Sequence record: SRR20825019_1762
Direction: 5' to 3' (one strand)
Length of the DNA: 64,000 nt
The notes beneath the pieces were generated by a model. That model saw only the letters and a list, made by a program, of their open reading frames with translations, was not told the DNA's origin and ran no database searches. A program made the position numbers and the translations under genes. Shown in pieces: positions 16,267 through 38,460 of the stretch (position 1 is its first letter; each line of letters opens with the position of its first letter).

Positions 16267-18198
16267 ATGAATGGTATTTCTTATCGTCTTAAAGTTGCTT
16301 CCACGTTATTTCTATTTATTTTAATTGGTGGTTGCAATTCCTCTTCCAAACCCAAATGGGAAAAGCGAAACAGCGAATTAATTGAAGAATACGGGCTCAC
16401 TGTCAGGGAACTGCCTAATCTTCCTTCAAGTTCCGTGGCTCCCAATTTGGAAGTGGGAACATCCATAAATTTCCAAGATTTGGACAGTTTGCAATTGTAT
16501 CCCGGGGTAACGGCCAAAATTTTTTGGGGAAATGGAAATTTAATCAGTGTATTCGACCTAGAACCCAATTCGACCATACCAAAAGAAAACTTGCCTGCCA
16601 ATAGATTTTTGATCGTAACAGAGGGTTCCATCGATTACATTGGAGAAGGCACAAAGTATAAAATGATGGCAAGGGAACGGGAAGAACCGGATGGTACTCA
16701 TAGCGGTACACCGAGAATTGATTTTATTTATCAAGACAAAGGAAGCCAAAGCGAAATTGTCGCTGGAGATACTGGGGCCAAAGTGATGGAGGTTTATAGC
16801 CCTATAAAGGTTGATTATCTAGAAAAAATGGGGATTGATGAACTTCCTTTGGAAACCAAGGAACAGACATCCAAGAATGAACCGACCATTGTACCCAATA
16901 AGGTTTATGACCTTTTCGATATTCAGTTTACGCAGCTTGCTGAGGGAATCTATACAAGATTGGTTTCCGCAGGAGACATGCAGCTAAGTTTTGTTTCTGC
17001 CGATCCCAATACCCAATCAAAAGCGCATATTCATCCGGAAGAACAAATCACTATTCTGTTGAGAGGAACCCTAAAGCAAACCGTTCTGGACCAAGAGATG
17101 GAATTAGAACCTCACGATATAGTCCTTGTTCCAGGAAACGTGGTGCATTCCGGTACAGCAGGTGAATTGGGCTTTGATGCACTTGATGTTTTTTGGCCCG
17201 TTCGGGAAGATTATCTGAACAAGCAACAAGCGGCACTTGAGCGATATCACGAAATTATCCCAAAGGACGCCAAGCCCGAATTGGTGATCGATGGTTCAAA
17301 AACAGAACCTACACTTACCTTTAGCGAAGGTCCCAAGTGGATGGATGGGAAACTCTATTTTTCCAACATGTACTTTGACCAAAACTGGAACGCCGACCCA
17401 AAAAAGAGTTCCATTGTGGCACTGGACCCTGATGGAACGTACCAAAATATTACGGAAGGGAAAATGCAGGCGAACGGATTGTATCCCTATAAGAATGGCA
17501 ATTTATTGGTCTGTGATATGATTGGTCACCGGGTGGTGGAAATGACCACGTCCGGGAAAGTGGTCCAAGTCATTGCCGAAACCTATAATGGCAAGCCCAT
17601 AGACGGCCCCAACGATATTATCACCGATACCAAGGGCGGTATCTATTTTACGGATCCCCAATTTACCATGGACGCTGAAAAATATCAGCCCGGAAGAGCT
17701 GTTTACTATGTTTCCCCTGAAAAAGAAGTGACCCGCTTGGTGGAACCCAATGAATTTGCAATGCCCAATGGGATTTTATTAAATCCTGACGGAAAAACGC
17801 TCTACATCAACAATTGTTATGATGACGAATCTTGGTATCCCGTAGACAGTTCAAAGGAAAATTTTGTTTGGGCCTATGATGTGAACGATGATGGTACTAT
17901 TTCAAACGGTCGGAAATTTGCCGAACTGCGTTTGACCGGAAATGTGCTAGACCGTAAAGGCAAGTCTTCTAGTGCGGACGGAATGGCCATTGATACCATG
18001 GGAAATATTTATGTGGCCACCTATTTTGGAGTCCAGATTTTTGATTCTAAAGGCTCCTTTGTCGGCATGATTAATCTACCATCATTTCCAGTGAGTTTAG
18101 GCTTTGGGGATGAGGATATGAAAACTCTCTATATTGTGAGTTATGACAAAGTGTACAAGATTCGAACCAACAGAAAAGGGTATGTCAATTATCTCTAA
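16267..18198 (+). CDS. Lipoprotein: two cupin domains fused to an SMP-30/gluconolactonase domain
   Basis: Lipobox IGGC; cupin HIHPEEQ...VVHSG; SGL motifs FSEGP, ANGL, GPNDI, PNGI, ADGMAID. Confidence 0.85.
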   Translation: MNGISYRLKVASTLFLFILIGGCNSSSKPKWEKRNSELIEEYGLTVRELPNLPSSSVAPNLEVGTSINFQDLDSLQLYPGVTAKIFWGNGNLISVFDLEPNSTIPKENLPANRFLIVTEGSIDYIGEGTKYKMMAREREEPDGTHSGTPRIDFIYQDKGSQSEIVAGDTGAKVMEVYSPIKVDYLEKMGIDELPLETKEQTSKNEPTIVPNKVYDLFDIQFTQLAEGIYTRLVSAGDMQLSFVSADPNTQSKAHIHPEEQITILLRGTLKQTVLDQEMELEPHDIVLVPGNVVHSGTAGELGFDALDVFWPVREDYLNKQQAALERYHEIIPKDAKPELVIDGSKTEPTLTFSEGPKWMDGKLYFSNMYFDQNWNADPKKSSIVALDPDGTYQNITEGKMQANGLYPYKNGNLLVCDMIGHRVVEMTTSGKVVQVIAETYNGKPIDGPNDIITDTKGGIYFTDPQFTMDAEKYQPGRAVYYVSPEKEVTRLVEPNEFAMPNGILLNPDGKTLYINNCYDDESWYPVDSSKENFVWAYDVNDDGTISNGRKFAELRLTGNVLDRKGKSSSADGMAIDTMGNIYVATYFGVQIFDSKGSFVGMINLPSFPVSLGFGDEDMKTLYIVSYDKVYKIRTNRKGYVNYL

Positions 18199-18219
18199 AA
18201 AAAGTGTCAATGATAATAT

Positions 18220-19458
18220 CTAATTCTGCACATCGTCGCCCATAACATCATATCCGCGCCATTTGAATTCCTTGGCAAGTCCTGAAGCGGCAGGCCAAGC
18301 GATTTGGTGTTGATCACTTGCCACCCATTTTCTCCTGTTTTCCTCCGTATCAAAAGATATTTGGATCTGATAGTTATACGTAGTAGGCTCTGCCTGTATT
18401 TCCTTGGCCAAATCATCTGGAAAAAGTCGAAGTAATTTCGAGCTGAGATACCCGTCTTGAACGACCATGGCAGGAACGTAGATGGAATAGTACATTTTTT
18501 CAAAGGCTTTGGCATTTTCCCTATCTACCACAAAATCCATTTGTAAGACCATGGCCTTGGGTGTTTCCAAAGGTCTGGCAATTGACAATCCGTTGTTCTT
18601 TGAAGCTGCAATGCTAATTATTAGAATTTCAAGATTTTCATTGCTGCTATTTGACCAAGCTATTTCTTCTCCCAAACCAGCATGGAATGAATCATCCTTT
18701 TGAATTTTGGCCGTTGCAGAACCAACCGATACCAATCCACTCCCATTCATTATATAGTATACTTCCTCAACCCCTTCCAATTGGCGTTTTTCCGTTGTCC
18801 CCCCTGAGGGAACCACTACATGGTCCACATGGTGCCAATCTGTTCGGAATATTTCTGGATTAAAAATCCGTCTATATAAAACGCCTTTTCCCTTATAAAC
18901 CTCATTGTCTTGTTTCAATTGACCTGTGTCCAATCGGGAGGACACAAATACAGGGACATCATCCTTCTTGGCCCCAACACGGTCATCACCTAGGTCAAAG
19001 GCACCTCCCTGAGCCTTTACCTCACTTACAGCAAAATTCAGCCATTTGAGGGGTTGTCCAGATGAATTATAAATTCCATGGGAATCCCCAAGTTTACAAG
19101 GAACCAAAGCTGGCCCCTTTATTTTTGATGTTCTACCATTGATGGTGAATTCAGCTTCTCCATCCAAAATGACATACATTTCTTCAATGGAATGATGAAA
19201 GTGGTGACCAATACCGGATTTAGGTTGAATAACCCCAGAATGTAGGTACAGGAAGTTGCTGACCAGATCATTTCGGCCAATCAATTGGGTAAAACCCATT
19301 TTACCGGCACCGGCATGTACACTGGATAATTCCCTATACGTCGAAGGATCATTGTAAACCACTCTTTCATTAAGGTTTTGGGCCATGCAGATACTGGCCA
19401 TCAAACAGAACAAAAAGCTGAATATTGGTTTCATAATATTGTATTTGTATCGTTTCAT
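18220..19458 (-). CDS. Exported bicupin with C-terminal ABM-like alpha/beta-barrel domain
   Basis: Signal peptide CMA|Q (start may be Met9); cupin HHFHHSIEEMYVILDG...SHG; degenerate second cupin; about 100-aa C-terminal domain ending W-VASDQH. Confidence 0.75.
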   Translation of the reverse strand: MKRYKYNIMKPIFSFLFCLMASICMAQNLNERVVYNDPSTYRELSSVHAGAGKMGFTQLIGRNDLVSNFLYLHSGVIQPKSGIGHHFHHSIEEMYVILDGEAEFTINGRTSKIKGPALVPCKLGDSHGIYNSSGQPLKWLNFAVSEVKAQGGAFDLGDDRVGAKKDDVPVFVSSRLDTGQLKQDNEVYKGKGVLYRRIFNPEIFRTDWHHVDHVVVPSGGTTEKRQLEGVEEVYYIMNGSGLVSVGSATAKIQKDDSFHAGLGEEIAWSNSSNENLEILIISIAASKNNGLSIARPLETPKAMVLQMDFVVDRENAKAFEKMYYSIYVPAMVVQDGYLSSKLLRLFPDDLAKEIQAEPTTYNYQIQISFDTEENRRKWVASDQHQIAWPAASGLAKEFKWRGYDVMGDDVQN

Positions 19459-19495
19459 TTTAAGTGTATAGAATTAGCCATCATTATCCTATAAG

Positions 19496-21769
19496 TTACT
19501 TTTTGTCCGGTATTCCATAAACCACATAGCCTTTTGCAATTGCTCCCGGTTTTTTCGAGTGGTCATAACTATCTTTTCTAAAATTAGAGGTGGCATTGAT
19601 CACCAAATATTGCTTGTCATCCAAAGTAAACATAATGGGTTGCGCATTGGTCTCATGGCTTAGCGTAGTTTCCCAGAGCACACTTCCATCCTCAGCATCA
19701 AAAGCATAAACCTTACCCCCTTTTGCCGTAGCAAACACAATCCCCGTAGAGGTAATGACCATACCCTTTCTCTGGGTACCATTGGGGGCTCCTTTGGTTT
19801 CATCCCCTTGCACATAAAGCGAGTCCACACCAATGGGTCGTCGCCACTTAATGGTTCCTTCATTCAGGTCATAGGCCACAATTGAGGACCAAGGTGGATC
19901 AATCAAACCGGGCCAATCCAGACCGTAATCGGTAGTGTATCGGTCTTCTGGACGTTCCACGCCTTCAGGGTAATCCTGCATTGGGGCTCCTCGCTGTGCA
20001 TCTGGAGGTATAGTTACCCCACCAGAAGCCACCACAGGGCCATCTACTGGTTCTGCCTGTTGATTGCCCCGTCTAAAACTTCTGCGATCGGTATCACCCC
20101 CAATATATTGGAACAAGGCTTTCAAGGAAGCTTCATCCACATGCACCAGACCTGGCATTACCCCTTTTCCATTGATCACTGTATTCCTAAATTCCTCATA
20201 GAACATATGATGCCCAAGATTCTTCAAGGAAGGCCCTGCCCCACCCTCCATATTTGGGCCATGACAGGCAATACACGAGGAGCTGTAAAGGGATTTGACC
20301 TTGTCCACATCATTGTCCGTAAGCTCGTTTTTTGGTGGTTCCACCTTGTTCAATCTGTAAGTGGATGCATATTCCTGGGTCATTATGTACATCATTCCAT
20401 TACGAGGATCGGCGGCTGTGTTTCCATAATTAGCACCGCCCAAAGCTCCGGGCATCATTATGGTTTCGTATTTGTCGGAAGGCGGCACATATAATCCTGT
20501 TTTGGCAGAATCCAATCTTTTGAGCCAATCTTGCCGGAGACTATCCGAAAAGTAGGGATTCAAGTTTTCTTTGGTCACCTCATGTCTCGTAAAACTCGGA
20601 AGCGAAGTGATGGGTTGTGTCGGCCAAGATTCCTCCCCTTGCATTTCGCTTTTGGGAAATGGTTTTTCCTCAATGGGAAATAGTGATTTCCCAGTTACCC
20701 TATCAAATACAAAAACGAAACCATGTTTGGTGGCAATGGCCACTGCATCTATCTTCTTACCGTCTTTCTCAACCGTGAGCAGTTGTGGGGCCGGCGACAG
20801 GTCATAGTCCCAGAGATCATGGTGAACCGTTTGGTAATGCCAGAGCCTCTCCCCCGTTTTTGCATCAAGGGCCACCAACGAATTAGCAAAAAGGTTACTG
20901 CCCAACCGATCAGCGCCATAATAATCATAGGTTGGCGAACCGATGGGCAAATAGGCAATTCCACGATCCGTATCTACCGATATTTCGCTCCATACGTTAG
21001 CGCCTCCAACATACTTATAAGCATCCTTGGGCCAAGTTTCATAACCATATTCACCGGGATGGGGTATCGTATGAAAGGTCCATTCCAATTTACCAGTAAC
21101 CACATTATAAGCTCTTACGTGACCTGGTGGGGAAAAATAGGCCTCCCCGGGCGCAGAGCCAAGTATCAAAAGATCATCGTAGATAACACCCGGCATCATG
21201 GGCTGTATCCTCGTTATGGATGTTGGATTCCGATCTAAACCTTCCCTAAGGTCCACATAGCCATTGTTCCCGAAATCCATAACAGATTTCCCAGTAACCG
21301 CATCAATCGCCTGAATGGAATTGTTAAGCGTGAACAGTAATCTCTTGTTCTTTTTGTCTTCACTTTCCCAATAATTGATACCTCTTCTGGTAATTCCCGG
21401 CAAATCTGTATGTATCCAAAGTTCTTTACCCGTTTTGGCATTTATGGCAATGAGGGAACTATTTTTCCCGAGAACGTACATGGTGCTGTCCACAATGATC
21501 GGGCTGAAAAAATAAAAACGGTCATCTCCTGATGGGTAGCTCCACAACAGTTGCATTTGTGCAACGTTGGACTTGGTGATACTGGGCGACTCGAAGAACT
21601 TGGATTGGTCTGGACTACCTCCGTAGTGCGACCACATTGTGTGCTCGGCAACTTCATTTGTATGGGTCTGACATCCCGATATAGTGACCAAAATTATCAG
21701 TATAACCAAGGTAACCCAAGATGTTGGCGTGAATTTAATATTTGACATTGTTATAGATGAAAAGCCCAT
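19496..21769 (-). CDS. PQQ-dependent sugar dehydrogenase (mGDH-like) with internal c-type haem domain, lipoprotein
   Basis: W-SHYGG, RGINYW, GGANVW, HHDLWDYD, GGANYG and Trp-docking repeats; CIACH haem motif with downstream MP; lipobox ISGC; no N-terminal 5-TM anchor. Confidence 0.88.
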   Translation of the reverse strand: MGFSSITMSNIKFTPTSWVTLVILIILVTISGCQTHTNEVAEHTMWSHYGGSPDQSKFFESPSITKSNVAQMQLLWSYPSGDDRFYFFSPIIVDSTMYVLGKNSSLIAINAKTGKELWIHTDLPGITRRGINYWESEDKKNKRLLFTLNNSIQAIDAVTGKSVMDFGNNGYVDLREGLDRNPTSITRIQPMMPGVIYDDLLILGSAPGEAYFSPPGHVRAYNVVTGKLEWTFHTIPHPGEYGYETWPKDAYKYVGGANVWSEISVDTDRGIAYLPIGSPTYDYYGADRLGSNLFANSLVALDAKTGERLWHYQTVHHDLWDYDLSPAPQLLTVEKDGKKIDAVAIATKHGFVFVFDRVTGKSLFPIEEKPFPKSEMQGEESWPTQPITSLPSFTRHEVTKENLNPYFSDSLRQDWLKRLDSAKTGLYVPPSDKYETIMMPGALGGANYGNTAADPRNGMMYIMTQEYASTYRLNKVEPPKNELTDNDVDKVKSLYSSSCIACHGPNMEGGAGPSLKNLGHHMFYEEFRNTVINGKGVMPGLVHVDEASLKALFQYIGGDTDRRSFRRGNQQAEPVDGPVVASGGVTIPPDAQRGAPMQDYPEGVERPEDRYTTDYGLDWPGLIDPPWSSIVAYDLNEGTIKWRRPIGVDSLYVQGDETKGAPNGTQRKGMVITSTGIVFATAKGGKVYAFDAEDGSVLWETTLSHETNAQPIMFTLDDKQYLVINATSNFRKDSYDHSKKPGAIAKGYVVYGIPDKK

Positions 21770-21836
21770 TATGCCATGCCGAAGCGTATTCTATACTTTT
21801 GGCCGGACAATGGTAGCTGTCAATATTTTTATGGGT

Positions 21837-22772
21837 TTACCAAGTTCTTTTCTTCAAAATTTCTTGAATCTGCTCTCTGGAAACAGGAAGCTCATCGATA
21901 TGTTCGTTGAGCCACTTGCTAAAATCCTTTTCAATTTCATCAGACCAACGCGTATCAATCTGTCCGGCAGTGTAGGTTCCTTCTTTGATACGTTGATGTC
22001 CGAACATATCACGTAAACGGACAACTTCGGAAACGGTAGCCACTTTTTCTGCCAAATGTGCAGGTATAAAGGTGACCACGCCCATTTTGCCCAAAACAAC
22101 ATCGCCGGGCATTACCGTTACAGTCCTGATCCTGGTTGGTTGATTTATTCCGACCAGCATCGTGTTCAAATCCCCTGGCGGATTATGGTGCGAGGCATCG
22201 TAACTCGTGTAGTAAGAGGTAAAACCGCCAATTTCCATGAGCCCTTCAACATCTCTGAGAGCACCGTCATAAACAATTCCATTACCTGATTTTGCGAAAA
22301 TAGCGTTGCCCACATTATCACCAATGGTGGGGCCATCCTTATCGGCACCAAATTGGTCGGCAACATACACATCCCCCTTTACCAAAATATCCACGGGCCA
22401 CGTGTTCTGCCCACGTTTGCCCTGGGCTTTTCCTCGATCATCTATAGCCTTCCACACATCGGGCCGACCTGGCATAAAGGTTGCCGTAACAGCACGTCCC
22501 ACGAGCACACTATCCGGGTTGATCATTTTCCAGCCTTCGGCAATTTGATAGCGATAGCCTTCATTCTTCATAACCGCCCAAGCTTCTTCGACGCTGACGG
22601 ATTTTATCCTTTCCAAAAGGGCGTCCGAAACTTTTGGCCTTCCATCATCAAAGCGTTCCCCTTTCCATTCCGGAGTTAAAAAAATAAGTTCTTCCTTACT
22701 GATCTGTTGACCCATCATCTGGGTTGCCAGACCAACAAGAACCATTAGGATCATATACTTTTTTCGTAACAT
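21837..22772 (-). CDS. RraA/HMG-aldolase family protein with signal peptide
   Basis: GRAVTA, IGDNVG, DGALRDV, PGDVV; hydrophobic N-terminus ending MMG|QQ. Confidence 0.85.
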   Translation of the reverse strand: MLRKKYMILMVLVGLATQMMGQQISKEELIFLTPEWKGERFDDGRPKVSDALLERIKSVSVEEAWAVMKNEGYRYQIAEGWKMINPDSVLVGRAVTATFMPGRPDVWKAIDDRGKAQGKRGQNTWPVDILVKGDVYVADQFGADKDGPTIGDNVGNAIFAKSGNGIVYDGALRDVEGLMEIGGFTSYYTSYDASHHNPPGDLNTMLVGINQPTRIRTVTVMPGDVVLGKMGVVTFIPAHLAEKVATVSEVVRLRDMFGHQRIKEGTYTAGQIDTRWSDEIEKDFSKWLNEHIDELPVSREQIQEILKKRTW

Positions 22773-22799
22773 AATAGTATCTTTTTAATGAGTTATTGA

Positions 22800-24083: not shown

Positions 24084-24124
24084 ATTTGGTTGCTTTTTGA
24101 CTTAAGAGATAATTATTATAATTT

Positions 24125-25231: not shown

Positions 25232-25242
25232 AATAGAAGGAT

Positions 25243-25704: not shown

Positions 25705-25730
25705 TCTATTGGTTTTATGCTGGCAGATAT

Positions 25731-26669: not shown

Positions 26670-26742
26670 GTTCTATATTTTTTAATTTTCCCTTAAAAAG
26701 GGGTCTGTTCTTCACGAATTCCCCACTGAATCAAGTTAGACA

Positions 26743-26771
26743 GGAAACCCCCGTTAACACGGGAGTTCTCC
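26743..26771 (-). terminator. GC-rich hairpin (terminator or stabilising stem) after the dehydratase gene
   Basis: Minus strand GGAGAACTCCCGT-GTTA-ACGGGGGTTTCC; weak U tail. Confidence 0.55.
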
Positions 26772-28383: not shown

Positions 28384-28417
28384 TTTTTTATTTCTTTTTG
28401 ATAATATCGGTTACTCA

Positions 28418-29953: not shown

Positions 29954-29963
29954 GATGTCTTAT

Positions 29964-32900
29964 TTAGAATTTGACGTTTAGGTTAAACCCGATACTTCTT
30001 GTGGTGGGTACACCTGTGGATTCCAGTCCAGAAACGTTGTCCGAACTATAAGCAAAGGAGTCTGGATCAATATTGGGGACCCATTTTTTAAGTATTGCCA
30101 CATTGTTTGCAACCAGGCTTAGGGTTACCCCTTGTACAAAGGAATCCTCTGGAATGAGTTTTTGGAAATCATACCCTAAGGTAATCTGCCTCAATTTCCA
30201 GAATCCAGAATTGTACACAATGGGTTCTATCAATTGCTGTGATCGCACAACTTCCCAGTAAGTTTGGGATTCCGTTGCAACATTGTTGGGTTGCCCCGCT
30301 TGGTTTACCCCATCTCCGATAACCCCGGTATCCCTACCAGGAAGGGTCATTTTATGGAGACCATGTCTAACGGCATTGAAGTTGGTACCGGAAATCATCT
30401 TACCTCCCAATTTGAAATCAATCAAAAAGGAGAAGTTGAAATCCTTGTAGCGTACGGTATTTGTAATACCTCCAACCCATCTGGGCAGTGCACTACCAAA
30501 GAATTTGATATCGTCCGACCTTAAAGGTCTTCCATCATTTGCAAATATTTGTCTTCCTTGGTCATCGAACTTATAACCAAAACCGGCCAATTGACCGATT
30601 TCCTTACCTACCACTTGGTAGAGATAACCGTTAAATACGTGGTTACCTACCAAAATACTCTCTCCCTCCTCATCGCTAAGCAGGCTGATTACTTTGGTTT
30701 TATTGTAGGACGCATTGAAATTAAAATCCCATCTTAGGTCATCATTACGAATGGGTGTCAAATTCAATAACATTTCAATACCGTCACTTCTACTTTCACC
30801 ACTGTTGATCAACTGACTTATAAATCCTGAAGAATTGGAAATCTGAGCGGGTATGATCTGATCTATTGTGGTCTTGCGGTATACGGCCAAATCCAATCCG
30901 ACCCGGTTATCGAACATTCTTAGATCGACACCTAGTTCTGTTTCCTTCACCCTCATTGGGCGAAGGTTGGGATTGGGCAATATGGATGTATTGGCGCCAG
31001 CAACTGGCTTGGGTGATCCATCCGGTCCTGGGAAGAAGTTGGCGTTGATATCATAAAATAGTGCGTCAGAATAAGGATTTACGTCCGTATCGCTGCCCAC
31101 TTCGGCATAGGCGGCCCTGAATTTACCCAAGGTAAGCCACTCCGCGTCATCACCGACCCAGTTTGAAAAGAGGACACTACCGGAAACAGAAGGATAAAGG
31201 ATACTTCTATTTGCTTCAGAAAGTGTTGAGAACCAATCGTTACGGGCAGTACCACTTAAAAAATAAGTGTCTTGATAAGATAAATCAACTGCTCCATACA
31301 AGGAGTTGATGCCTCTCTCGGACATGGAGTAGGTTGGATCTTTCACCCTACCGTTTTGTACAGTGTACAGATCACGGATCACAAAATCGGTCACATCCAC
31401 TCTATTGAGCTCCTGTCTTCTTCTCATTTGGTTTCCACCAACATTGTAACTAATTCCAAAATCTTCATTTACATCAACATTTCCTGAAAAAAGGAAGTCC
31501 ATGTTGGTTTCCCTATACCTTCTTGCTGTTTGGGTAAAGGTTCCATTAAAGAAGGGTTCTGGTGCCGCAGGTCTGGAAGCTTGTCCGGTCGGATACCCAT
31601 TAAATTGTTGGGAACGTGACCAATAGTCCTGCCCTACCCGTATCTGTCCCGTAAGCCATGAAAGAATTTTATAGCGTGCGGCAACGTTACCGAATATTCT
31701 ATCTCTCCGTATTTCGTTGAACTGTTCGGAAAGCGTAAAATATGGATTGGTACGGTTTCTGAACCTGCTGTATACAAATTCGTTCCCGTTCTCATCAAGT
31801 TTTTTCTCTTCCAATAAATCGAAAGGCATGGAATTGGCCATGTTGTAAAGGGCCACAGGAATCGTATTGTCCTGTTGGCCAACGTTGGGCGGGTTTATGT
31901 TTTTCTCGTAGGAATAATTGACATGGGCCTCAACGCTAAGCTTGTCGGACAGGTCATAGTTTGCCCCAAAGTTTACCGTCTTCCTGTTAAACTCGTTATT
32001 AGGAGTGATGCCTTTACTGCCTAGATTGGAAAGTGAAAGGTTGAACCCTCCTTTTTCTGATCCACTCGAAATGGATACGGAATTGGTGATGTCGAGACCA
32101 CTTCTATAAAACTTCTTAATTCTGTCGTAAACCGGAACATAAGGAACTTCCACTCCATCAAAAAGAACCTGCGTCATTCCCGGTTGAAAGCGTTCCCCGA
32201 AGGACCATTGTCCGGAGGTTGGATTGGCCGATGTAGGCCTCACTCCGTTCTCCCCTTGTCCATATTCATACTGATAGTCTGTAAAATCCAAAGGGGTATG
32301 GTCGGTTATGTTAAGGTTGTAGGTAACCCCTATTCCCTGTTGACGCCCACGCGACTTCGTGGTGATCATAATAACACCATCCTTTGCCCTGGACCCATAA
32401 AGTGCTGCACCGGTGGCTCCCTTTAAAATGGTCATACTTTCTATGTCATCTGGATTGATACTGGAAAAACCATCACCACCATCGGAATAGATTCCGTCAC
32501 TATTGGTGCCCACTTCTGTACTGGTACTCCCCGGGCTTGTACCAAAGGAAGTATTGTCTATCGGCACACCATTTACCACTATTAGAGGATTATTGGTCCC
32601 CGAAATTGAGGATTGACCTCTAATTCTAACTTTTGATGACCCACCTGGTCCTGAACTCAATGAGGATATATTGACCCCTGCTACCTTGCCCTGAAGGGTG
32701 TTCATAAAATTTGAAGACCTGTTCACATTGACCTCGTCGGCATCTACCTGGGCAATGGAATATCCCAATTTCTTGGTTTCTTGCTTAATCCCCAAAGCAG
32801 TTACCACAACTTCGTTCAAGTTCTGTGTATCTTCCTGTAATACTATATCAAGGGTCGTGGATCCTCCAACCGGGACTTCTTTTCTTGTAAACCCGATGGA

Positions 32901-33470
32901 ACTGACTATCAAAACGGCATTGGCATTCTGAACAGTTATCTCATAAACTCCATCAAAGTTGGCGGCAACACCATTAGTGGTGCCCTTTTCTATCACAGAT
33001 GCCCCTGGTATGGGTACGCCATTGGAGTCTGTAATTACACCCGAAAGTGTGGTTTGAAAATCGTCATCGGGAGATGAGGAAGGACTTGAGTCCGTCGGAG
33101 CTACATCGATTGCGTTTCTGGTCTTTAAAATAATTTGTTGTTTGTTAAAAAGATAAGAAACGTTGGTTCCCTGGAAAAGTTGGTCGAGTATTTCAGCGAT
33201 CAATTTTTGGTCTACATTGATAGAGACCTTTCTGTGAGCATTTACTTTTTTGTTGTCATAAAAGAACTTGAACTCTGAAACAGATTCAATCTGTTCGAAC
33301 ACTTGCATAATTTCTACATTTTTCATGTCCAAACTGAGTTTGGTATTTTGGGAGTAGGAATTTGCATGTGTCGAAAAAAAGGAAACTATCAAGAAAAGTG
33401 CAGTTAGTTTCACCGTCAGCGACAAGTTGTTTGTTAAACAAGGCAGAGTGCTCTTGATGTAATTTTTCAT
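29964..33470 (-). CDS. susC: SusC/RagA TonB-dependent transducer with N-terminal STN signalling domain
   Basis: N-terminal extension LSLDMKN...FKFFY, LNEVVVTALG, PLIVVNGVP, LKGATGAALYGSRA, C-terminal NVKF. Confidence 0.95.
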   Translation of the reverse strand: MKNYIKSTLPCLTNNLSLTVKLTALFLIVSFFSTHANSYSQNTKLSLDMKNVEIMQVFEQIESVSEFKFFYDNKKVNAHRKVSINVDQKLIAEILDQLFQGTNVSYLFNKQQIILKTRNAIDVAPTDSSPSSSPDDDFQTTLSGVITDSNGVPIPGASVIEKGTTNGVAANFDGVYEITVQNANAVLIVSSIGFTRKEVPVGGSTTLDIVLQEDTQNLNEVVVTALGIKQETKKLGYSIAQVDADEVNVNRSSNFMNTLQGKVAGVNISSLSSGPGGSSKVRIRGQSSISGTNNPLIVVNGVPIDNTSFGTSPGSTSTEVGTNSDGIYSDGGDGFSSINPDDIESMTILKGATGAALYGSRAKDGVIMITTKSRGRQQGIGVTYNLNITDHTPLDFTDYQYEYGQGENGVRPTSANPTSGQWSFGERFQPGMTQVLFDGVEVPYVPVYDRIKKFYRSGLDITNSVSISSGSEKGGFNLSLSNLGSKGITPNNEFNRKTVNFGANYDLSDKLSVEAHVNYSYEKNINPPNVGQQDNTIPVALYNMANSMPFDLLEEKKLDENGNEFVYSRFRNRTNPYFTLSEQFNEIRRDRIFGNVAARYKILSWLTGQIRVGQDYWSRSQQFNGYPTGQASRPAAPEPFFNGTFTQTARRYRETNMDFLFSGNVDVNEDFGISYNVGGNQMRRRQELNRVDVTDFVIRDLYTVQNGRVKDPTYSMSERGINSLYGAVDLSYQDTYFLSGTARNDWFSTLSEANRSILYPSVSGSVLFSNWVGDDAEWLTLGKFRAAYAEVGSDTDVNPYSDALFYDINANFFPGPDGSPKPVAGANTSILPNPNLRPMRVKETELGVDLRMFDNRVGLDLAVYRKTTIDQIIPAQISNSSGFISQLINSGESRSDGIEMLLNLTPIRNDDLRWDFNFNASYNKTKVISLLSDEEGESILVGNHVFNGYLYQVVGKEIGQLAGFGYKFDDQGRQIFANDGRPLRSDDIKFFGSALPRWVGGITNTVRYKDFNFSFLIDFKLGGKMISGTNFNAVRHGLHKMTLPGRDTGVIGDGVNQAGQPNNVATESQTYWEVVRSQQLIEPIVYNSGFWKLRQITLGYDFQKLIPEDSFVQGVTLSLVANNVAILKKWVPNIDPDSFAYSSDNVSGLESTGVPTTRSIGFNLNVKF

Positions 33471-33477
33471 ACCTTTG
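33470..33477 (+). promoter_or_regulatory. Bacteroidota sigma-A -7 element (TACCTTTG), antisense, overlapping the susC start codon
   Basis: Exact TAnnTTTG match on the + strand; no clear -33 TTG at 19-21 nt. Confidence 0.5.
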
Positions 33478-33482
33478 TAATG

Positions 33483-33555
33483 TTTTTAGTTAACTTATTT
33501 TTTGAGTTAATAATCTCAAATCGGGAAGGTGTTGCAGCATCTCCCGATTTTTTTT
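33483..33555 (+). ncRNA. Putative cis-antisense sRNA (about 70 nt) to the susC leader
   Basis: Lies between the -7 element and hairpin AAATCGGGA...TCCCGATTT (33518-33550), whose T8 tail (33548-33555) is on the + strand. Confidence 0.5.
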
Positions 33556-33595
33556 GTGCATTTATTTCATAGGCGTATATCTGATTTTTGGTTAT

Positions 33596-34759
33596 TTATT
33601 CTAGAATGATTATTTGATCATCTTCAATTAGGTAATCAAAGTATGTTTCGGACACGAACGTGTTCAGTACTTCTTCAATGGTTTCCACGTCAAAAGTGGC
33701 AGTGAACACCCTGTCTTCCAAGTCCATGTTCTTGTTCTGGATGGACACCCCGTAGTGCCTTTCCAATTTTTTTATCATATCCTTAAATTTCATGCCCCTA
33801 AGAACTAATTTCCCTTTCATCCAACTGGTATACAGTTCGGTATCGACCTTTTGCACGCTCATTTTTCTATGAGCAGATTCCCAAGAAGCCATATCTCCAG
33901 GTGTAAGCAATGTGGAATCGTCCTCACTATAGCTCATACCCGATTCATAAAGTCTAACGGATCCTTCAACCAGCACCGTCTTTTGGTTGGTATCCTCGGG
34001 GTAGGCAGTAACATTGAACTGGGTTCCTAATACACGTATATCCAATGATTGCGAAGTGACTATAAATGGACTGTTCTCATTTTTCTTCACATCGAAGAAT
34101 GCTTCTCCGATCAATGTTACTTTTCTCTGCTGTCCCGGAACAAACTTTATAGGATATGTTAAGGTGGAACCTGCATTAAGATTAACAGTGGTTCCATCAG
34201 ACAAAACAATTTTGAATGTCTTTCCATTTGGGATATGTAGCGTATTGTATACCAAATCGTCGTCAACTGCGTCAATATCACTTTGTGAATAGTCCACCAT
34301 ATTTTCGGCTTTAGTGCCGAGCACATTGCCATCCTTTGTTACAATCGCGGTAGAACCCGACTGGGACAGAATCCGGGTTTCCCCATTCCCCAGTTCCAAC
34401 GTAATAGCTGTTGGATCATGCTCCACCTCTACCAATTTCTCCATATAAAATGACTTAAAGAAAAGAGATAACGCCACAACACCAACAAAAACTGCTGCAT
34501 AACGCATAAACCTTGAATAAGAAGTTGTTAAACGCTTGTTCGATTTATTTGTATGAAGTCCATGTTGAATTGTTCCCCAAGCTTCTTGTGAATCAAGATG
34601 ATGTATATTTTGCAGTTCTTTCAATTTATCCTGCAATTTTGTGAGCCTTTGAAAGGTCAAAAAATTTTCATCATCTTCAGACAACCATTTCTCAAATAGA
34701 ATTTCTTCTTCTTCGCTTATGGGCCCTTTTAATTTTTTAAGGATAATTTCTACGATCAA
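33596..34759 (-). CDS. fecR: FecR-family anti-sigma factor
   Basis: TTG start; N-terminal WL motif, one TM helix, LSDGTTVNLNAGS, GEAFFDV, VLGTQFNV, LVEGSV. Confidence 0.93.
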   Translation of the reverse strand: MIVEIILKKLKGPISEEEEILFEKWLSEDDENFLTFQRLTKLQDKLKELQNIHHLDSQEAWGTIQHGLHTNKSNKRLTTSYSRFMRYAAVFVGVVALSLFFKSFYMEKLVEVEHDPTAITLELGNGETRILSQSGSTAIVTKDGNVLGTKAENMVDYSQSDIDAVDDDLVYNTLHIPNGKTFKIVLSDGTTVNLNAGSTLTYPIKFVPGQQRKVTLIGEAFFDVKKNENSPFIVTSQSLDIRVLGTQFNVTAYPEDTNQKTVLVEGSVRLYESGMSYSEDDSTLLTPGDMASWESAHRKMSVQKVDTELYTSWMKGKLVLRGMKFKDMIKKLERHYGVSIQNKNMDLEDRVFTATFDVETIEEVLNTFVSETYFDYLIEDDQIIILE

Positions 34760-34803
34760 TTTGGTCTTTGTTTATAGCGATGATAACATATCATCTACTT
34801 ATA

Positions 34804-34830
34804 AGACCTAAAAAATTGAAAAACGGGTAG
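34804..34830 (-). promoter_or_regulatory. Possible ECF-sigma promoter upstream of fecR (CTACCC-17 nt-GTCT)
   Basis: Position between sigma and anti-sigma genes and 17-nt spacing; assignment is inferred. Confidence 0.3.
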
Positions 34831-34883
34831 TGAAAATCTTATATTTTTATATAATTTTTTATAAATATGCCATTTTAAGATAT

Positions 34884-35372
34884 CTAAAAATGGATATTTC
34901 TCAAATTTAAGCGAAGTATCTTAAAAGACTTTTTCAAGTGGTACTTTACTGTATTGACTGTAATGCCCATGATTTCTGCTGCACCTTCATACTTGATTCC
35001 TTCCATCACACAGAGCTCAAATACCTTTCTATTCTGTACTGGCAAGGATTCCAGTTCTTTAAAAATTGTTTCAGAAACTTCTGACTGAATCCACTCATTC
35101 TCATACGAAGGTACATAAGTAGTGGAATGGGACATATCGAAAGTTCGTTGAGAATTTTTAATTTTTTTTAAACTTTCATTTCGTACAGCAGTATTGATGT
35201 AGGGCTTAAAATTCTCAATAGTTGTATACTCATTTTTCTGTAATAGCTTGGTGAAAACTGTTTGTACCACATCTTTTGCATCATCCAAATCTTGCACATA
35301 ACTATAAGATAACAAACACCATTCTTGGTAATGCTCAAGAAACATTTCTTCCAAATTTTTAGTGTTTATCAT
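34884..35372 (-). CDS. ECF sigma-70 factor
   Basis: DAKDVVQTVF region 2; LP...VF...EG-KYE-AAE-MGITVNTVKYHL region 4; adjacent to fecR. Confidence 0.92.
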   Translation of the reverse strand: MINTKNLEEMFLEHYQEWCLLSYSYVQDLDDAKDVVQTVFTKLLQKNEYTTIENFKPYINTAVRNESLKKIKNSQRTFDMSHSTTYVPSYENEWIQSEVSETIFKELESLPVQNRKVFELCVMEGIKYEGAAEIMGITVNTVKYHLKKSFKILRLNLRNIHF

Positions 35373-35633: not shown

Positions 35634-36827
35634 ATGAAAGACCTATTGATCAACCGTTACATTGCAAATAAAGGTGTTTGGATAGGAAGATGCCACGTAC
35701 CATCTGAAAACGCCTATAATAATGTTGAAGGCCCCCATGTAATTTGGGCACATAAAGAATGGGTATATGATCTATCCTATTACTTCAAATCTACGGGAGA
35801 ACTCATCAATTCGGGCAACTACAAAGAAATATTGGATGTAAAGAATCCGAATATTACAAAAGTGGGGGCTTTTGAAGAAATTTTGGAAAATTCATTTTAT
35901 CATCAAAAGGACTATAACAAGCCCTTTTTCCTGGCCCCTAACGATACTCAAGCCGTTAAGGCATGCGGGGTCACTTTTATTAAGAGCTTATTGGAAAGGG
36001 TAATTGAGGAGAGGGCAAAAGGAGAACCTCAATTGGCCATACAACTAAGGGACGAAATCACCTCCATCATTGGTGAAAGTCTCAACAACATAGTTCCTGG
36101 CTCGCCACAGGCAGTTAGTTTAAAAGATGAACTAAAAAAAAGGGGGATTTGGTCCCAGTACCTGGAAGTTGGTATTGGCCCCAATGCGGAAGTGTTTACC
36201 AAAAGCCAACCTTTTTCATCAGTGGGTTTTGGTGCGGAGATTGGTGTGCTCAGTGATTCAAAGTGGAACAATCCAGAACCTGAAATAGTATTGGTGGTCA
36301 CCAATTCAGGCAACATAGTGGGGGCAACTTTGGGCAATGATGTGAATTTACGGGATTATGAGGGCAGAAGTGCCTTGTTATTGGGAGAAGCAAAAGATCA
36401 AAATGGTTCTTGTGCCGTTGGTCCACTGTTCAGAATGTTCGATGACTCTTATTCGTTGGACGACGTAAAAACTGCCAAGGTATCCTTAACGATTACCGGG
36501 ACCGATGGTTTTGAGTTAAAGGATGCAAGTGACATGGGAGAAATAAGCAGGTCACCTGAAGAATTGGTAACACAAGTGATCAATGATAACCATCAATATC
36601 CCGACGGGTTCATTCTTTTTTGTGGAACCATGTTCGCTCCAACGTTGGATAGAAATGAAAAAGATATGGGGTTCACCCATAAACCACAGGACAGGGTGAT
36701 CATTGAATCCCCTAAACTGGGTATGTTGGTGAATTGGGTCAACTCGGCAGATAAAATTCCTAATTGGAATTTCGGAATCAATGCTTTTGTTGACTACTCC
36801 ATAAAGAGGTTACAAAAAAAGAAATAA
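35634..36827 (+). CDS. FAH-family protein, XylX-like 2-keto-3-deoxy-pentonate dehydratase
   Basis: LAP-D-QAVKACGVTF--S-LERVIEE, SQYLEVGIGP-AEVFTK, WNNPEPE, GNDVNLRD-EGRSALLL, HQYPDG, GFTH; no signal peptide. Confidence 0.82.
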   Translation: MKDLLINRYIANKGVWIGRCHVPSENAYNNVEGPHVIWAHKEWVYDLSYYFKSTGELINSGNYKEILDVKNPNITKVGAFEEILENSFYHQKDYNKPFFLAPNDTQAVKACGVTFIKSLLERVIEERAKGEPQLAIQLRDEITSIIGESLNNIVPGSPQAVSLKDELKKRGIWSQYLEVGIGPNAEVFTKSQPFSSVGFGAEIGVLSDSKWNNPEPEIVLVVTNSGNIVGATLGNDVNLRDYEGRSALLLGEAKDQNGSCAVGPLFRMFDDSYSLDDVKTAKVSLTITGTDGFELKDASDMGEISRSPEELVTQVINDNHQYPDGFILFCGTMFAPTLDRNEKDMGFTHKPQDRVIIESPKLGMLVNWVNSADKIPNWNFGINAFVDYSIKRLQKKK

Positions 36828-36876
36828 TGAAAGGTATGTAAAAACACCCTTTACTAATTACTAAAAAAACTAAAAA

Positions 36877-38460
36877 ATGATTTCAGGTAAAAACTATATC
36901 GGTTCAAAAGTATCGGGGAATGGCGAGAGAACCTTCCACACCTTTAATCCAAAAAGCAACCAAATTACGGCTTGGACCTTCTATGAAGCCTCCTCGACAG
37001 AAATTGACGAAGCAGTTGATTTGGCGGAACAGGCATTTCAGGAGTACAAACAATTTTCCGGTGTCAAAAAAGCAGGTTTTCTGAGGGCCATTGCGGAAGA
37101 GATTGAGAATTTGGGCGATGAGTTGATCGAGACCTATACGCAGGAATCCGGGCTTCCCGAAGGTCGCGCCTTGGGAGAACGAGGCCGTACCATGGGACAG
37201 CTCAATGCATTTGCCACATTGCTCGAAGAAGGTTCCTGGACCGATGCGACCATAGATACCGCAATTCCCGAACGCACTCCTATACCCAAAGAAGACATAC
37301 GAAAGATGTTGGTCCCGATCGGTCCCATAGTAGTTTTTGGTTCCAGTAATTTTCCTTTTGCCTTTTCTACTGCCGGGGGCGATACAGCAAGTGCCCTGGC
37401 AGCGGGGTGTCCTGTCATCGTAAAGAGCCATCCCATGCATGCGGGAACCGGCGAACTTGTCGCGTCGGCCATTATAAAGGCCGCAAAAAAAACAGGAATG
37501 CCCGATGGCGTTTTTTCAAACTTGAACAGCAGTGGAATCGAGGTGGGAGAAAGATTGGTTACCCACCCAAAAGTAAAGGGCGTAGGTTTTACGGGAAGTA
37601 TCCGAGGAGGAACGGCACTTTATAATTTGGGTATGCAACGGGAAGAACCCATACCTGTTTTCGCAGAAATGGGGAGTGTGAACCCTGTTATTGTGCTTCC
37701 CTCTGCCTTGGAAGAAAAAAAGGATCATTGGGCCTCCCAATATGCCGGCTCCATTACGTTGGGGTCTGGCCAATTCTGCACCAATCCCGGCTTGTTGATC
37801 GGGCTTAAAGGAAAGGCTTTGGACAATTTTGTTTCCACATTGGGTGAACAACTGTCGCTTTTGGATCCATCGAGCATGTTGCATCCGAACATCCATGAAA
37901 ACTATGAAAAGGGACGAAAGGAAATCTCTAGTCATGAAAAAGTATCTGTTGTGGCGGAGTTTGGGAAGGAATTGCCGCCAAATTATGGCAGGCAGCAATT
38001 ACTTACGGTGAGCGGAAAGGATTTTTTGGAGAACCCCGTAATGCACCAAGAGGTTTTTGGACCGTTGTCCCTGGTTGTACAATGTGCCGATGAGGAGGAG
38101 CTCACCAATATCCTTCATAGTTTGGAAGGTCAACTTACCGGAACAATATTGGGCGATGAACCGGAGATAAAAAAATATGAAAAGGTAATAGATGCCTTAA
38201 AAAGTAAGGTGGGGCGAATCATTTTCAACAGTGTTCCCACCGGCGTCGAGGTCTGTCCGTCCATGTTTCATGGCGGCCCCTTCCCGGCGACCACGGACAG
38301 TAGGTTCACTTCGGTGGGGTCCTCGGCCATAATTCGATGGGTACGTCCCGTCTGTTTCCAAAATTGGCCACAATCCATGCTACCAGCCGAATTACAAAAC
38401 GACAATCCGTTGGGTATCATGAGAAAAGTGAACGGTATGTTCACCTCAAATCCTATCTGA
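36877..38460 (+). CDS. NADP-dependent aldehyde dehydrogenase, alpha-ketoglutaric semialdehyde dehydrogenase type
   Basis: GERGRT, FGSSNFPFAFSTAGGDTASALAAGCP, EMGSVNP, GQFCTNPG, HGGPFPATT. Confidence 0.88.
   Translation: MISGKNYIGSKVSGNGERTFHTFNPKSNQITAWTFYEASSTEIDEAVDLAEQAFQEYKQFSGVKKAGFLRAIAEEIENLGDELIETYTQESGLPEGRALGERGRTMGQLNAFATLLEEGSWTDATIDTAIPERTPIPKEDIRKMLVPIGPIVVFGSSNFPFAFSTAGGDTASALAAGCPVIVKSHPMHAGTGELVASAIIKAAKKTGMPDGVFSNLNSSGIEVGERLVTHPKVKGVGFTGSIRGGTALYNLGMQREEPIPVFAEMGSVNPVIVLPSALEEKKDHWASQYAGSITLGSGQFCTNPGLLIGLKGKALDNFVSTLGEQLSLLDPSSMLHPNIHENYEKGRKEISSHEKVSVVAEFGKELPPNYGRQQLLTVSGKDFLENPVMHQEVFGPLSLVVQCADEEELTNILHSLEGQLTGTILGDEPEIKKYEKVIDALKSKVGRIIFNSVPTGVEVCPSMFHGGPFPATTDSRFTSVGSSAIIRWVRPVCFQNWPQSMLPAELQNDNPLGIMRKVNGMFTSNPI

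Follow-up and report, generated by a model that had tools for sequence, protein, structure and literature searches.

A minus-strand run of 12 genes (positions 18220-35372) in sequence record SRR20825019_1762, a 64,000-nucleotide stretch of DNA that we call the window, appears to form an operon that breaks down a sugar or sugar acid outside the cytoplasm, with a SusC/SusD pair for uptake and an extracytoplasmic function (ECF) sigma factor and an anti-sigma factor for control. We put the probability of this reading at roughly 0.65. Oxidative, nonphosphorylative sugar-acid pathways are textbook cytoplasmic metabolism; in the present host, an Allomuricauda/Flagellimonas-type marine flavobacterium (best related loci: an uncultured Allomuricauda sp. 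at 100%, Flagellimonas spp. at 96%), sugar-acid breakdown that normally takes place inside the cell probably works in the periplasm, and this periplasmic route is, at the level of sequence, well supported. At the center of the operon stand two predicted acid-sugar dehydratases of the enolase superfamily, MLE1 and MLE2, both with twin-arginine translocation (Tat) signals, and each adjoins one RraA-like protein with a Sec signal (RraA1 and RraA2, 46% identical to each other).

The 12 genes follow one another in the order ECF sigma, FecR, SusC, SusD, MLE2, RraA2, NTF2, BASS, MLE1, RraA1, PQQ enzyme and bicupin, with spacings of 10-125 bp except one of 214 bp. Two genes, for a fumarylacetoacetate hydrolase (FAH)-type protein and an aldehyde dehydrogenase (ALDH), are transcribed divergently from the sigma gene, and a lactonase gene is convergent on the operon. 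The features of the cluster are as follows:

34884-35372, minus: ECF-type sigma-70 factor, first gene of the operon (Pfam Sigma70_r2 and r4_2; TIGR02985, 106.6 bits)
33596-34759, minus: FecR-type anti-sigma factor (Pfam FecR and FecR_C)
29964-33470, minus: SusC/RagA TonB-dependent transporter (TIGR04056, 640 bits, above cut-off; N-terminal STN, CarboxypepD_reg and Plug)
28418-29953, minus: SusD-like lipoprotein (Pfam SusD-like_2, 268 bits; lipobox LLG-C, then EENFDE)
26884-28383, minus: MLE2, Tat-signal enolase-superfamily protein, predicted acid-sugar dehydratase (MR_MLE_N and MR_MLE_C)
25731-26669, minus: RraA2, partner of MLE2, Sec-signal protein of the RraA/HMG-aldolase fold (Pfam RraA-like, 65 bits)
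25243-25704, minus: NTF2-like protein with a Sec-type leader (Pfam DUF4440, 63.6 bits)
24125-25231, minus: inner-membrane transporter of the bile acid:sodium symporter (BASS) family (Pfam SBF, 133 bits)
22800-24083, minus: MLE1, Tat-signal enolase-superfamily protein of the second pair, predicted acid-sugar dehydratase (NF010624, 239 bits)
21837-22772, minus: RraA1, partner of MLE1, Sec-signal RraA-like protein (Pfam RraA-like, 54 bits)
19496-21769, minus: lipoprotein dehydrogenase with a pyrroloquinoline quinone (PQQ)-type propeller and cytochrome c (PF01011, 520 bits; Cytochrome_CBB3)
18220-19458, minus: bicupin with a Sec leader (Cupin_2 in two stretches)
16267-18198, plus: cupin-SGL lactonase lipoprotein (SGL, 128 bits, residues 352-625; Cupin_2, residues 243-295)
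35634-36827, plus: FAH, candidate KdaD/XylX-like 2-keto-3-deoxy-pentonate dehydratase (Pfam FAA_hydrolase, 29.9 bits)
36877-38460, plus: ALDH, candidate alpha-ketoglutarate-semialdehyde (KGSA) dehydrogenase (Aldedh, 180 bits)

Judged by the features that define a polysaccharide utilization locus (PUL), the cluster has an adjacent SusC/SusD pair, 10 bp apart, and lacks in-locus carbohydrate-active enzymes (CAZymes), as Pfam finds a glycoside hydrolase (GH), polysaccharide lyase or carbohydrate esterase domain in none of the 15 cluster proteins. The single wide gap, of 214 bp between MLE2 and RraA2 (26670-26883), holds a terminator-like hairpin on the minus strand (26826-26809); in related loci the same gap measures 6 to 204 bp. 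Scanning for such sites did no better than chance, with 19 terminator-like sites versus 17.9 expected and 37 promoter-like sites versus 43.9 expected, the promoter scan using a sigma-70 consensus that is ill-suited to Bacteroidota. The lactonase gene starts 64 bp behind an esterase gene of the upstream plus-strand operon and is therefore probably transcribed with that operon.

The predicted location of these enzymes follows from their N-termini, in which signals were judged by the RR motif and a 10-residue Kyte-Doolittle window, crude heuristics used in place of SignalP/TatP. An earlier note on this DNA had described an ECF/FecR/SusC/SusD front with no glycoside hydrolase behind it, lipoboxes on the PQQ dehydrogenase and the lactonase, twin-arginine signals on both dehydratases, Sec signals on the two RraA proteins, the NTF2 protein and the bicupin, and signal-free proteins only in the XylX-like FAH and the KGSA dehydrogenase-like ALDH. 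Each of these observations is borne out: the gene content is as claimed by Pfam and NCBIfam, with all 15 proteins free of GH domains; the lipoboxes read LIGG-C in the cupin-SGL lactonase and TISG-C in the PQQ enzyme; the twin-arginine motifs are SRRSFI at residue 4 of MLE1 and DRRNFLKK after a 35-residue n-region in MLE2; and both RraA proteins, the NTF2 protein and the bicupin begin with leaders that are short, hydrophobic and positively charged and that end in A-x-Q or G-Q. The N-termini of FAH and ALDH show no leader. Overall, export signals stand on all 10 non-regulatory, non-transport cluster proteins and on neither FAH nor ALDH. Acidic residues follow the lipobox cysteine in SusD (C-EENFDE), which is not the case for the PQQ enzyme (C-QTHTNE) and the lactonase (C-NSSSKP). 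This pattern fits a surface-exposed SusD and a PQQ enzyme and lactonase retained in the periplasm, provided that acidic residues at this place act as the Bacteroidota lipoprotein export signal. The division of labor is also consistent in its cofactors, in that the predicted exported enzymes are all independent of free ATP, NAD(P) and CoA, and the NAD(P)-dependent ALDH and, in other genomes, the ATP-dependent KdgK carry no signal.

These signals are kept far beyond the window. A scan of one genome per species returned 396 relatives of MLE2, and the best 80 of the 396 loci were analyzed, with gene counts taken from a clustering of their 1136 open reading frames and from ordered maps. Of 78 MLE2 homologues, 77 have the RR motif, the sole miss (L072) being cut by a contig end, and so do all 28 MLE1 homologues, six of which have GTG starts, which makes 105 of 106 dehydratase homologues overall. 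A hydrophobic leader is found in RraA2 (62/62), RraA1 (25/25), NTF2 (59/62), bicupin (6/6) and PQQ-type enzymes (14/16), and in none of the FAH (0/10) or ALDH (0/9) homologues; two of the three NTF2 misses have long upstream extensions of the reading frame, and the third has a hydrophobic start just below threshold. Ahead of the RR motif of MLE2 stands an n-region that, counted from the first ATG, measures exactly 35 residues in 62 of the 77 homologues and whose L, I, K, K, E, E, Y, R, E, P and T positions hardly vary; MLE1 has no such n-region. N-regions of this length and conservation are usual in Tat substrates served by a dedicated chaperone. TatC is encoded in the genome (222 bits), so that an RR motif, a weakly hydrophobic stretch and a genomic Tat translocase, the sequence features expected of a Tat substrate, are all present. 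The closest solved homologue of MLE1, 2qq6 (E 7.5e-90), aligns with its residue 5 at residue 43 of MLE1, where mature MLE1 starts, and therefore lacks the leader. The earlier note had proposed to ask whether homologues lose the export signals; they are conserved, and its observation therefore stands. Its proposal that oxidation, lactone opening and dehydration occur in the periplasm is likewise strengthened, as all three are predicted to be extracytoplasmic by signals kept across orders and in one other class, in a host that has TatC.

The same loci delimit what is conserved. MLE2, the most conserved gene of the core, shows 73-96% identity over a range that takes in Flavobacteriaceae, Sphingobacteriales (Parapedobacter, Daejeonella) and Chitinophagaceae, and is accompanied in the 80 loci by RraA (73), NTF2 (62), BASS (58), SusD (51), SusC (47) and FecR (41). 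A second pair of MLE1 and RraA1 is present in 28 loci, the PQQ-type dehydrogenase in 17, ALDH in 11 from several genera, FAH of the 397-residue type in 10, and the bicupin in 6, all of them close relatives. At the same spot, other loci carry additional signal-bearing sugar enzymes that would need no free cofactor: Tat-signal oxidoreductases of the GFO/IDH/MocA kind in L030, L069 and L027, a UxuA-like dehydratase with a Tat signal in L038, a seven-bladed lactonase in L047 and a GSDH-cytochrome c protein in L016. FAH occurs in 10 of the 28 loci with MLE1 versus 0 of the 52 without it, although these genomes are related and the counts are not an independent statistic. The commonest noncore neighbors are KdgK (22 of 80) and Eda (20 of 80), which lie co-directionally and directly behind BASS and are often followed by uxuA and uxuB. 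No glycoside hydrolase family is recurrent near the module across the 80 loci, and the settings in other genomes include sulfatases, a rhamnosidase and housekeeping genes; the core lies mostly outside xylan contexts, and one Flavisolibacter locus has GH10, GH43 and GH51 nearby.

The most distant arrangement of this kind, L095 (G176:C1:248500-268400), comes from another Bacteroidota class at 59% GC and reads SusC-SusD-MLE2-MLE2-RraA-MLE2-BASS. Its SusC is 49% identical, its three tandem MLE2 paralogues are 53-58% identical to MLE2 and bear RR motifs, and it has no dehydrogenase. From the synteny counts and this locus it therefore follows that the conserved unit consists of SusC/SusD, a Tat-signal dehydratase, an exported RraA, often NTF2, and BASS. 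Particular lineages add to it the dehydrogenase, the lactonase, FAH and ALDH, so that the module varies both in its oxidizing front and in its cytoplasmic finish. Among 150 evenly sampled other Bacteroidota genomes, only 2 have an MLE2 orthologue at E 1e-100 or better, one of them being the genome of L095, and the module is therefore patchy in the phylum.

Both dehydratases retain the catalytic apparatus of sugar-acid dehydratases. In the alignment of 28 MLE1 and 80 MLE2 sequences, K197, D199, D244, E270, E296, D318, H345 and E370 (MLE1 numbering) are present in 108 of 108, so that the three carboxylate metal ligands, the His-Asp dyad and the extra Glu of galactonate-dehydratase-like enolase-superfamily enzymes are all in place. 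The carboxylates, the Asp-His pair and the last Glu are spaced 26, 26, 22, 27 and 25 residues apart, a spacing that matches that of Escherichia coli DgoD (metal ligands D183, E209 and E235; dyad D258-H285; E310). The best NCBIfam models for the two proteins are galactonate, gluconate/galactonate and mannonate dehydratases, all under their cut-offs; for galactonate dehydratase (NF010624) MLE1 scores 239 bits and MLE2 185 bits, its best NCBIfam match, and both fall short of the 311 bits of the equivalog. The muconate cycloisomerase model reaches 99 bits with MLE1 and 59 bits with MLE2, and the glucarate dehydratase model only 24-29 bits. Position 246, that of the DxH acid catalyst, is His in all 28 MLE1 and Tyr in all 80 MLE2, and MLE2 has an insertion of about 33 residues relative to MLE1; the two are therefore distinct families that probably take different substrates. 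The 120 best named relatives of MLE2 carry generic names only.

The RraA-like partners are 311-312 residues long with their leaders, and score 54 (RraA1) and 65 bits (RraA2) against a cut-off of 24.5 for PF03737. Their R178-D179 pair aligns with R123-D124 of 3noj, an aldolase for 4-hydroxy-4-methyl-2-oxoglutarate (HMG) and 4-carboxy-4-hydroxy-2-oxoadipate (CHA), by residue numbers counted from the alignment, and is invariant in 103 of 103 homologues; the Pfam match and the Arg-Asp pair together place them in the RraA/HMG-CHA aldolase fold. The known 2-keto-3-deoxy-pentonate aldolases of the Dahms pathway belong to another family. Models for LigK, PcmE and HMG aldolase give 33-52 bits, and the best curated model is NF006093, at 93 bits for RraA1 and 88 bits for RraA2, below its cut-off of 208 and thus short of FlDet-type membership.

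FlDet, an RraA-family enzyme of 237 residues from Flavobacterium sp. UMI-01, converts 2-keto-3-deoxy-glucarate to KGSA and has a type II KGSA dehydrogenase gene adjoining its own, according to the available part of its description (PMC8563752). No leader is removed from it, because, in the same part of that paper, it was purified with the initiator Met still present (PMC8563752). Of 61 Flavobacteriaceae genomes sampled, 9 encode true NF006093 members, which have about 240 residues and no leaders, resemble the published FlDet at the N-terminus and share just 22-26% identity with RraA1 and RraA2. We infer from this length and N-terminus, rather than from a direct comparison, that FlDet itself belongs to NF006093. 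Given the low identity, the leaders and the scores below cut-off, the exported RraA proteins therefore form a separate branch. Their reaction could be a retro-aldol cleavage or an FlDet-like dehydration/decarboxylation, either of which would start from the 2-keto-3-deoxy acid of the neighboring dehydratase. RraA genes of the NF006093 type also adjoin Tat-motif xylose-isomerase-like TIM-barrel genes, at L082:2319-3287, L083:483-1475 and L087:510-1478.

The candidate enzymes on either side of this core are assigned at the level of family. In the PQQ enzyme, a cytochrome c domain (residues 487-556, with a CIACH heme motif at 499) lies between two PF01011 stretches and thus inside the propeller, unlike the solved quinohemoprotein alcohol dehydrogenases, in which it is at the C-terminus; the best structural match is such an enzyme, 1yiq, at only 145 bits, and TIGR03074 gives 329 bits versus a cut-off of 833. 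BASS matches the PanS-like model at 239 bits and TIGR00841 at 225 bits versus a cut-off of 326, and is a family member at the Pfam level only. FAH matches KdaD (2q18, E 1.4e-21) and 9kkt (E 3e-101) among solved structures, and no NCBIfam model matched it. ALDH has 2,5-dioxovalerate dehydrogenase as its best NCBIfam model (126 bits versus a cut-off of 750) and 3v4c as its best structure (E 2.6e-132), and a 62% identical orthologue belongs to a hydroxyproline cluster, a setting in which the final reaction would be expected to fall to KGSA dehydrogenase. Searches of a protein atlas with the NTF2 protein returned only its own unnamed Bacteroidota family and no functional name. The bicupin has only weak cupin matches in the PDB, among them a faint one to gentisate dioxygenase (E 0.003); its nearest atlas clusters are Bacteroidota cupins, some with MannoseP_isomer, again with no functional name, and it is possibly of a sugar-isomerase type.

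Although free of hydrolases, the operon is embedded in a GH-rich region of the xylan type. Upstream lie GH95, three esterases, GH127, GH51, GH43 and a SASA esterase, with feruloyl-esterase-like genes on this side; downstream lie GH43, a second SusC/SusD pair, a carbamoyltransferase, GH10, GH115, GH43, UxuA, a short-chain dehydrogenase/reductase, GH67 and UxaC, and UxuB is also within the window, besides GH67, GH115, UxaC and UxuA. The carbamoyltransferase (Carbam_trans_N and Carbam_trans_C) stands with a small SxtJ-like protein at 45577-47885 on the plus strand, directly after the SusC/SusD pair, and the two are odd company for the xylanases of the surrounding region. Short contigs identical to the window occur in two marine metatranscriptome runs of one study, X16 (14 pieces) and X19 (10 pieces), and cover parts of RraA1, MLE2, SusD, SusC, FecR, the PQQ gene and NTF2. 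These are not counted as evidence of expression, because the libraries may contain DNA and the contigs show neither strand nor level; two further sets, X17 and X18, are 90-95% relatives that look like genomic contigs. In the supplements to studies of Zobellia galactanivorans (PMC5613140) and Maribacter sp. MAR_2009_72 (PMC11036162), the terms mandelate racemase, RraA and bile acid led to no RraA entry, and the matches were to unrelated genes.

The genes present, the export signals, the extent to which these signals are kept, the catalytic residues and the gene order across loci are direct readings of the sequences, and on them we would build a pathway whose every reaction, whose substrate and whose placing of the RraA step are deduced. 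A small carbohydrate or sugar acid would cross the outer membrane through SusC/SusD, its binding being signaled from STN through FecR to the ECF sigma factor. In this lineage, the periplasmic PQQ/cytochrome c lipoprotein would oxidize C1 and pass the electrons to the respiratory chain, and the lipoprotein lactonase would open the resulting lactone. The Tat-exported MLE1 and MLE2 would turn the sugar acids into 2-keto-3-deoxy acids, on which the RraA partner, a putative Mg-dependent 2-keto-acid enzyme, would act either by retro-aldol cleavage to pyruvate and an aldehyde or by FlDet-type dehydration/decarboxylation to KGSA. BASS would import the keto-acid product, and the cytoplasmic FAH and ALDH would finish the route to 2-oxoglutarate, with KdgK and Eda doing so instead in other genomes.

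Several points weigh against this pathway as drawn. Many core loci have neither a dehydrogenase nor a lactonase, and the lactonase gene of the window lies on the other strand, behind another operon. The positions of KdgK and Eda behind BASS suggest import of a whole 2-keto-3-deoxy-hexonate, which leaves the RraA step without an obvious place. As all NCBIfam equivalog scores are under their cut-offs, no substrate can be named. The genome has no detected PqqC and no PqqE above cut-off, the PqqC search having been silent in every control genome as well, so that the first oxidation would need PQQ from outside, or the dehydrogenase may not use PQQ. The NTF2 protein and the bicupin have no assigned part in the proposed pathway. 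The export signals, finally, are judged by motif and hydrophobicity.

Within the extracytoplasmic reading, the choice of substrate divides two routes that we regard as about equally likely, each of them doubtful as a full account. Were xylan-derived D-xylose or L-arabinose the substrate, a periplasmic Weimberg/Dahms-like route would have the RraA proteins as Dahms-type 2-keto-3-deoxy-pentonate aldolases and FAH and ALDH as the last Weimberg steps. The earlier note, which named xylose, arabinose or a uronate as substrate, framed the route in this Weimberg/Dahms-like way, and part of its case holds: FAH matches KdaD (2q18) and 9kkt, ALDH is of the KGSA dehydrogenase kind, FAH is confined to MLE1-bearing loci (10/28 versus 0/52, in genomes that are not independent), and the flanks here do encode xylan and arabinan enzymes, as does the neighborhood of the Flavisolibacter locus with its GH10, GH43 and GH51. 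Other points speak against it. Flanking genes lose force as a pointer to the substrate in that the contexts in other genomes are not consistently xylan, with the core mostly outside such settings; the commonest cytoplasmic neighbors, KdgK and Eda, act on hexose-derived 2-keto-3-deoxy-gluconate (KDG); and the best models for MLE1 and MLE2 are those of galactonate, gluconate and mannonate dehydratases, whereas bacterial pentonate dehydratases are, in the accessible part of a review, of the IlvD/EDD type (PMC9795676). Nor does the lack of a xylose isomerase and xylulokinase in the window serve as a clue, as the earlier note had suggested: the genome encodes a xylose isomerase (676 bits), next to it a XylB-like kinase (307 bits, slightly below cut-off), and also AraA with an adjacent kinase, so that their absence from the window says little, and their presence counts against this route. 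Alternatively, (4-O-methyl-)glucuronate released by GH67 and GH115 would be oxidized to an aldarate, dehydrated by an MLE protein to 2-keto-3-deoxy-glucarate and converted by RraA to KGSA and CO2, with the KGSA imported and oxidized by ALDH. Here NF006093 is the best RraA family (93 and 88 bits, ahead of 33-52 for the LigK and HMG aldolase models), its true members are about 240 residues long with FlDet-like N-termini, FlDet adjoins a type II KGSA dehydrogenase in the part of its description at hand (PMC8563752) while ALDH is found in 11 of the 80 loci, and the module often stands beside uxuA, uxuB, kdgK and eda, the window itself holding GH67, GH115, UxaC, UxuA and UxuB. Yet the RraA proteins share no more than 22-26% identity with FlDet-like proteins and fall well short of the 208 cut-off, the glucarate dehydratase model gives MLE1 and MLE2 only 24-29 bits, the membership of FlDet in NF006093 is itself deduced, and FAH is left with no role.

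Other accounts fare worse. The order of steps might be reversed, with the RraA proteins as aldolases acting on imported 2-keto-3-deoxy ulosonic acids such as Kdo (3-deoxy-D-manno-octulosonic acid), KDN (2-keto-3-deoxy-nononic acid) or sialic acid, the released aldose then being oxidized, delactonized and dehydrated and the new 2-keto-3-deoxy acid imported for KdgK/Eda or FAH/ALDH. Such an order would reconcile an RraA aldolase with either downstream pair and would fit the variants with a Tat-signal UxuA-like protein (mannonate dehydratase type) or with amidohydrolase, pyridoxal phosphate (PLP)-dependent enzyme and RidA; it is nonetheless highly unlikely, as it is deduced from gene sets alone, no sialidase or Kdo-hydrolase family is recurrent near the module in the 80 loci, many core loci lack a dehydrogenase for the released aldose, and the known ulosonic-acid aldolases belong to another family (DHDPS/NAL). 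It is very improbable, too, that there is no single pathway at all and that the cluster is a mosaic of unrelated exported proteins, or that the leaders fail to direct export, leaving the enzymes in the cytoplasm like their relatives. The lineage-specific nature of the PQQ enzyme, cupins, FAH and ALDH, the 214-bp gap with its terminator-like hairpin and the lactonase on the opposite strand all lean that way, but the order SusC-SusD-MLE2-RraA-(NTF2)-BASS is kept across orders and in one other class, the remaining spacings are 10-125 bp, and an RR motif in 105 of 106 homologues with a conserved 35-residue n-region is not expected of a vestigial leader. An aromatic route, in which ring-cleavage products of, for example, ferulate from the esterases would be handled by LigK-type RraA aldolases, MLE cycloisomerases and a bicupin dioxygenase, is the least credible of these: the weak LigK/PcmE matches (33-52 bits), the feruloyl-esterase-like genes upstream and the faint gentisate dioxygenase match of the bicupin (E 0.003) are outweighed by dehydratase scores of 239 and 185 bits versus 99 and 59 for muconate cycloisomerase, by the retained DgoD-like residue set and by sugar-acid genes as neighbors across genomes, and we rejected it on the model scores.

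One further conjecture, to which we give small odds, would make the module a depolymerase without hydrolases that peels oligosaccharides from an oxidized reducing end by elimination. The reducing-end sugar would become an aldonic acid through PQQ or GFO enzymes, or the substrate would arrive oxidized at C1; the Tat-exported enolase-type dehydratase would remove the C3 substituent; and the RraA-like enzyme would enolize the 2-keto acid and eliminate the O4 substituent, the leaving group being the remaining glycan chain, in a chemistry equal to the C4 dehydration carried out by XylX, KdaD and FlDet. A 2-keto acid such as KGSA would be released for BASS, and the chain, one residue shorter, would re-enter the cycle. 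Peeling would explain the dedicated SusC/SusD pair, the absent hydrolase, the periplasmic location and the fixed pairing of dehydratase and RraA. Against it, the FAH or KdgK-Eda downstream suggests import of a free 2-keto-3-deoxy acid, and many core loci have no oxidase.

Returning to the extracytoplasmic catabolism of free sugars or sugar acids, a variant module in two other Flavobacteriaceae genera (L093:3549-12558 and L094:7027-13782) speaks for this reading. It comprises an SGL lactonase, a CBM9_2 protein, a GSDH-cytochrome c protein, an exported amidohydrolase, BASS and an exported RraA that is 52-54% identical to RraA1 and RraA2, together with a Tat-signal RidA, a Tat-signal SelA-like PLP enzyme and a RidA lipoprotein. 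This enzyme set is expected to yield, again, a 2-keto-3-deoxy acid ahead of the exported RraA and BASS.

In a literature search over full texts, with few subscription journals, we found no description of a Tat-exported enolase-superfamily dehydratase, an exported RraA or a periplasmic nonphosphorylative route, and the available portions of PMC9007349 and PMC5507952 describe no such exported dehydratases, RraA or periplasmic route either. If true, the present reading would add a new compartment to sugar-acid catabolism and widen the notion of what a PUL can be, and it would bear on the use of oxidized sugars by marine and soil Bacteroidota, including the products of oxidative polysaccharide cleavage. 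It would also make testable why enolase-superfamily enzymes use Tat, what bacterial BASS proteins carry and what the exported RraA fold does.

Parallels exist for individual parts of the module. Pseudomonas and Gluconobacter, with their PQQ glucose dehydrogenase, and Zymomonas, with a Tat-exported glucose-fructose oxidoreductase, oxidize a sugar outside the cytoplasm, the electrons going to the respiratory chain or to a cofactor that stays tightly bound, and the acid is then imported. Such systems are not known to go beyond oxidation, whereas dehydration and a 2-keto-acid step are here predicted to take place outside as well. The regulatory and uptake genes resemble those of ECF/anti-sigma Sus-like PULs, with their SusC/SusD pair, STN-domain SusC, FecR and ECF sigma factor; unlike these, the operon is without a CAZyme. 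The oxidative FlDet/FlDeg pathway for 4-deoxy-L-erythro-5-hexoseulose uronate (DEHU), also flavobacterial, likewise couples, in the accessible part of its description, a KGSA dehydrogenase to an RraA-family enzyme whose substrate is a 2-keto-3-deoxy sugar acid (PMC8563752), but FlDet is leaderless at 237 residues and RraA1 and RraA2 have leaders and about 311.

The variant module in L093 and L094 has its own counterpart in the ong system of Pseudoalteromonas prydzensis, in which, as far as the available part of the report goes, a TonB-dependent receptor imports an oxidized sugar acid and KdgK receives KDG from the successive work of a deacetylase, a PLP deaminase and RidA, the cytoplasmic OngB, OngC and OngD turning N-acetyl-glucosaminic acid into KDG (PMC9537276). 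The enzyme kinds are the same, but those of L093 and L094 have leaders of the Sec or Tat type and stand together with BASS and an exported RraA, and their PLP enzyme is SelA-like rather than OngC-like. In outline, the variant resembles an oxidative chitin (ong) route placed outside the cytoplasm.

A further likeness is to the Weimberg and Dahms pathways, as in Caulobacter xylXABCD and the archaeal AraDH/AraD/KdaD/DopDH, which proceed from sugar to lactone, acid and 2-keto-3-deoxy acid and end either, via KGSA, at 2-oxoglutarate or at pyruvate and an aldehyde. Candidates for an FAH-type 2-keto-3-deoxy-pentonate dehydratase and an ALDH-type last step are present here, and the dehydratase is of the enolase superfamily, as in archaea. 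Bacterial Weimberg pentonate dehydratases are IlvD/EDD proteins, the archaeal version being the one from the enolase superfamily, in the accessible part of a 2022 review of both pathways, in which the word periplasm has 0 occurrences (PMC9795676). By contrast with a cytoplasmic IlvD/EDD dehydratase, MLE1 and MLE2 are enolase-superfamily proteins with Tat motifs; the upstream enzymes are export-signaled and fed by SusC/SusD, a PQQ/cytochrome c lipoprotein takes the place of an NAD(P) dehydrogenase, and the RraA-fold partners belong to neither known pathway. Read in this way, the operon would represent a known type of pathway that has moved to another compartment and that includes an RraA-fold step.

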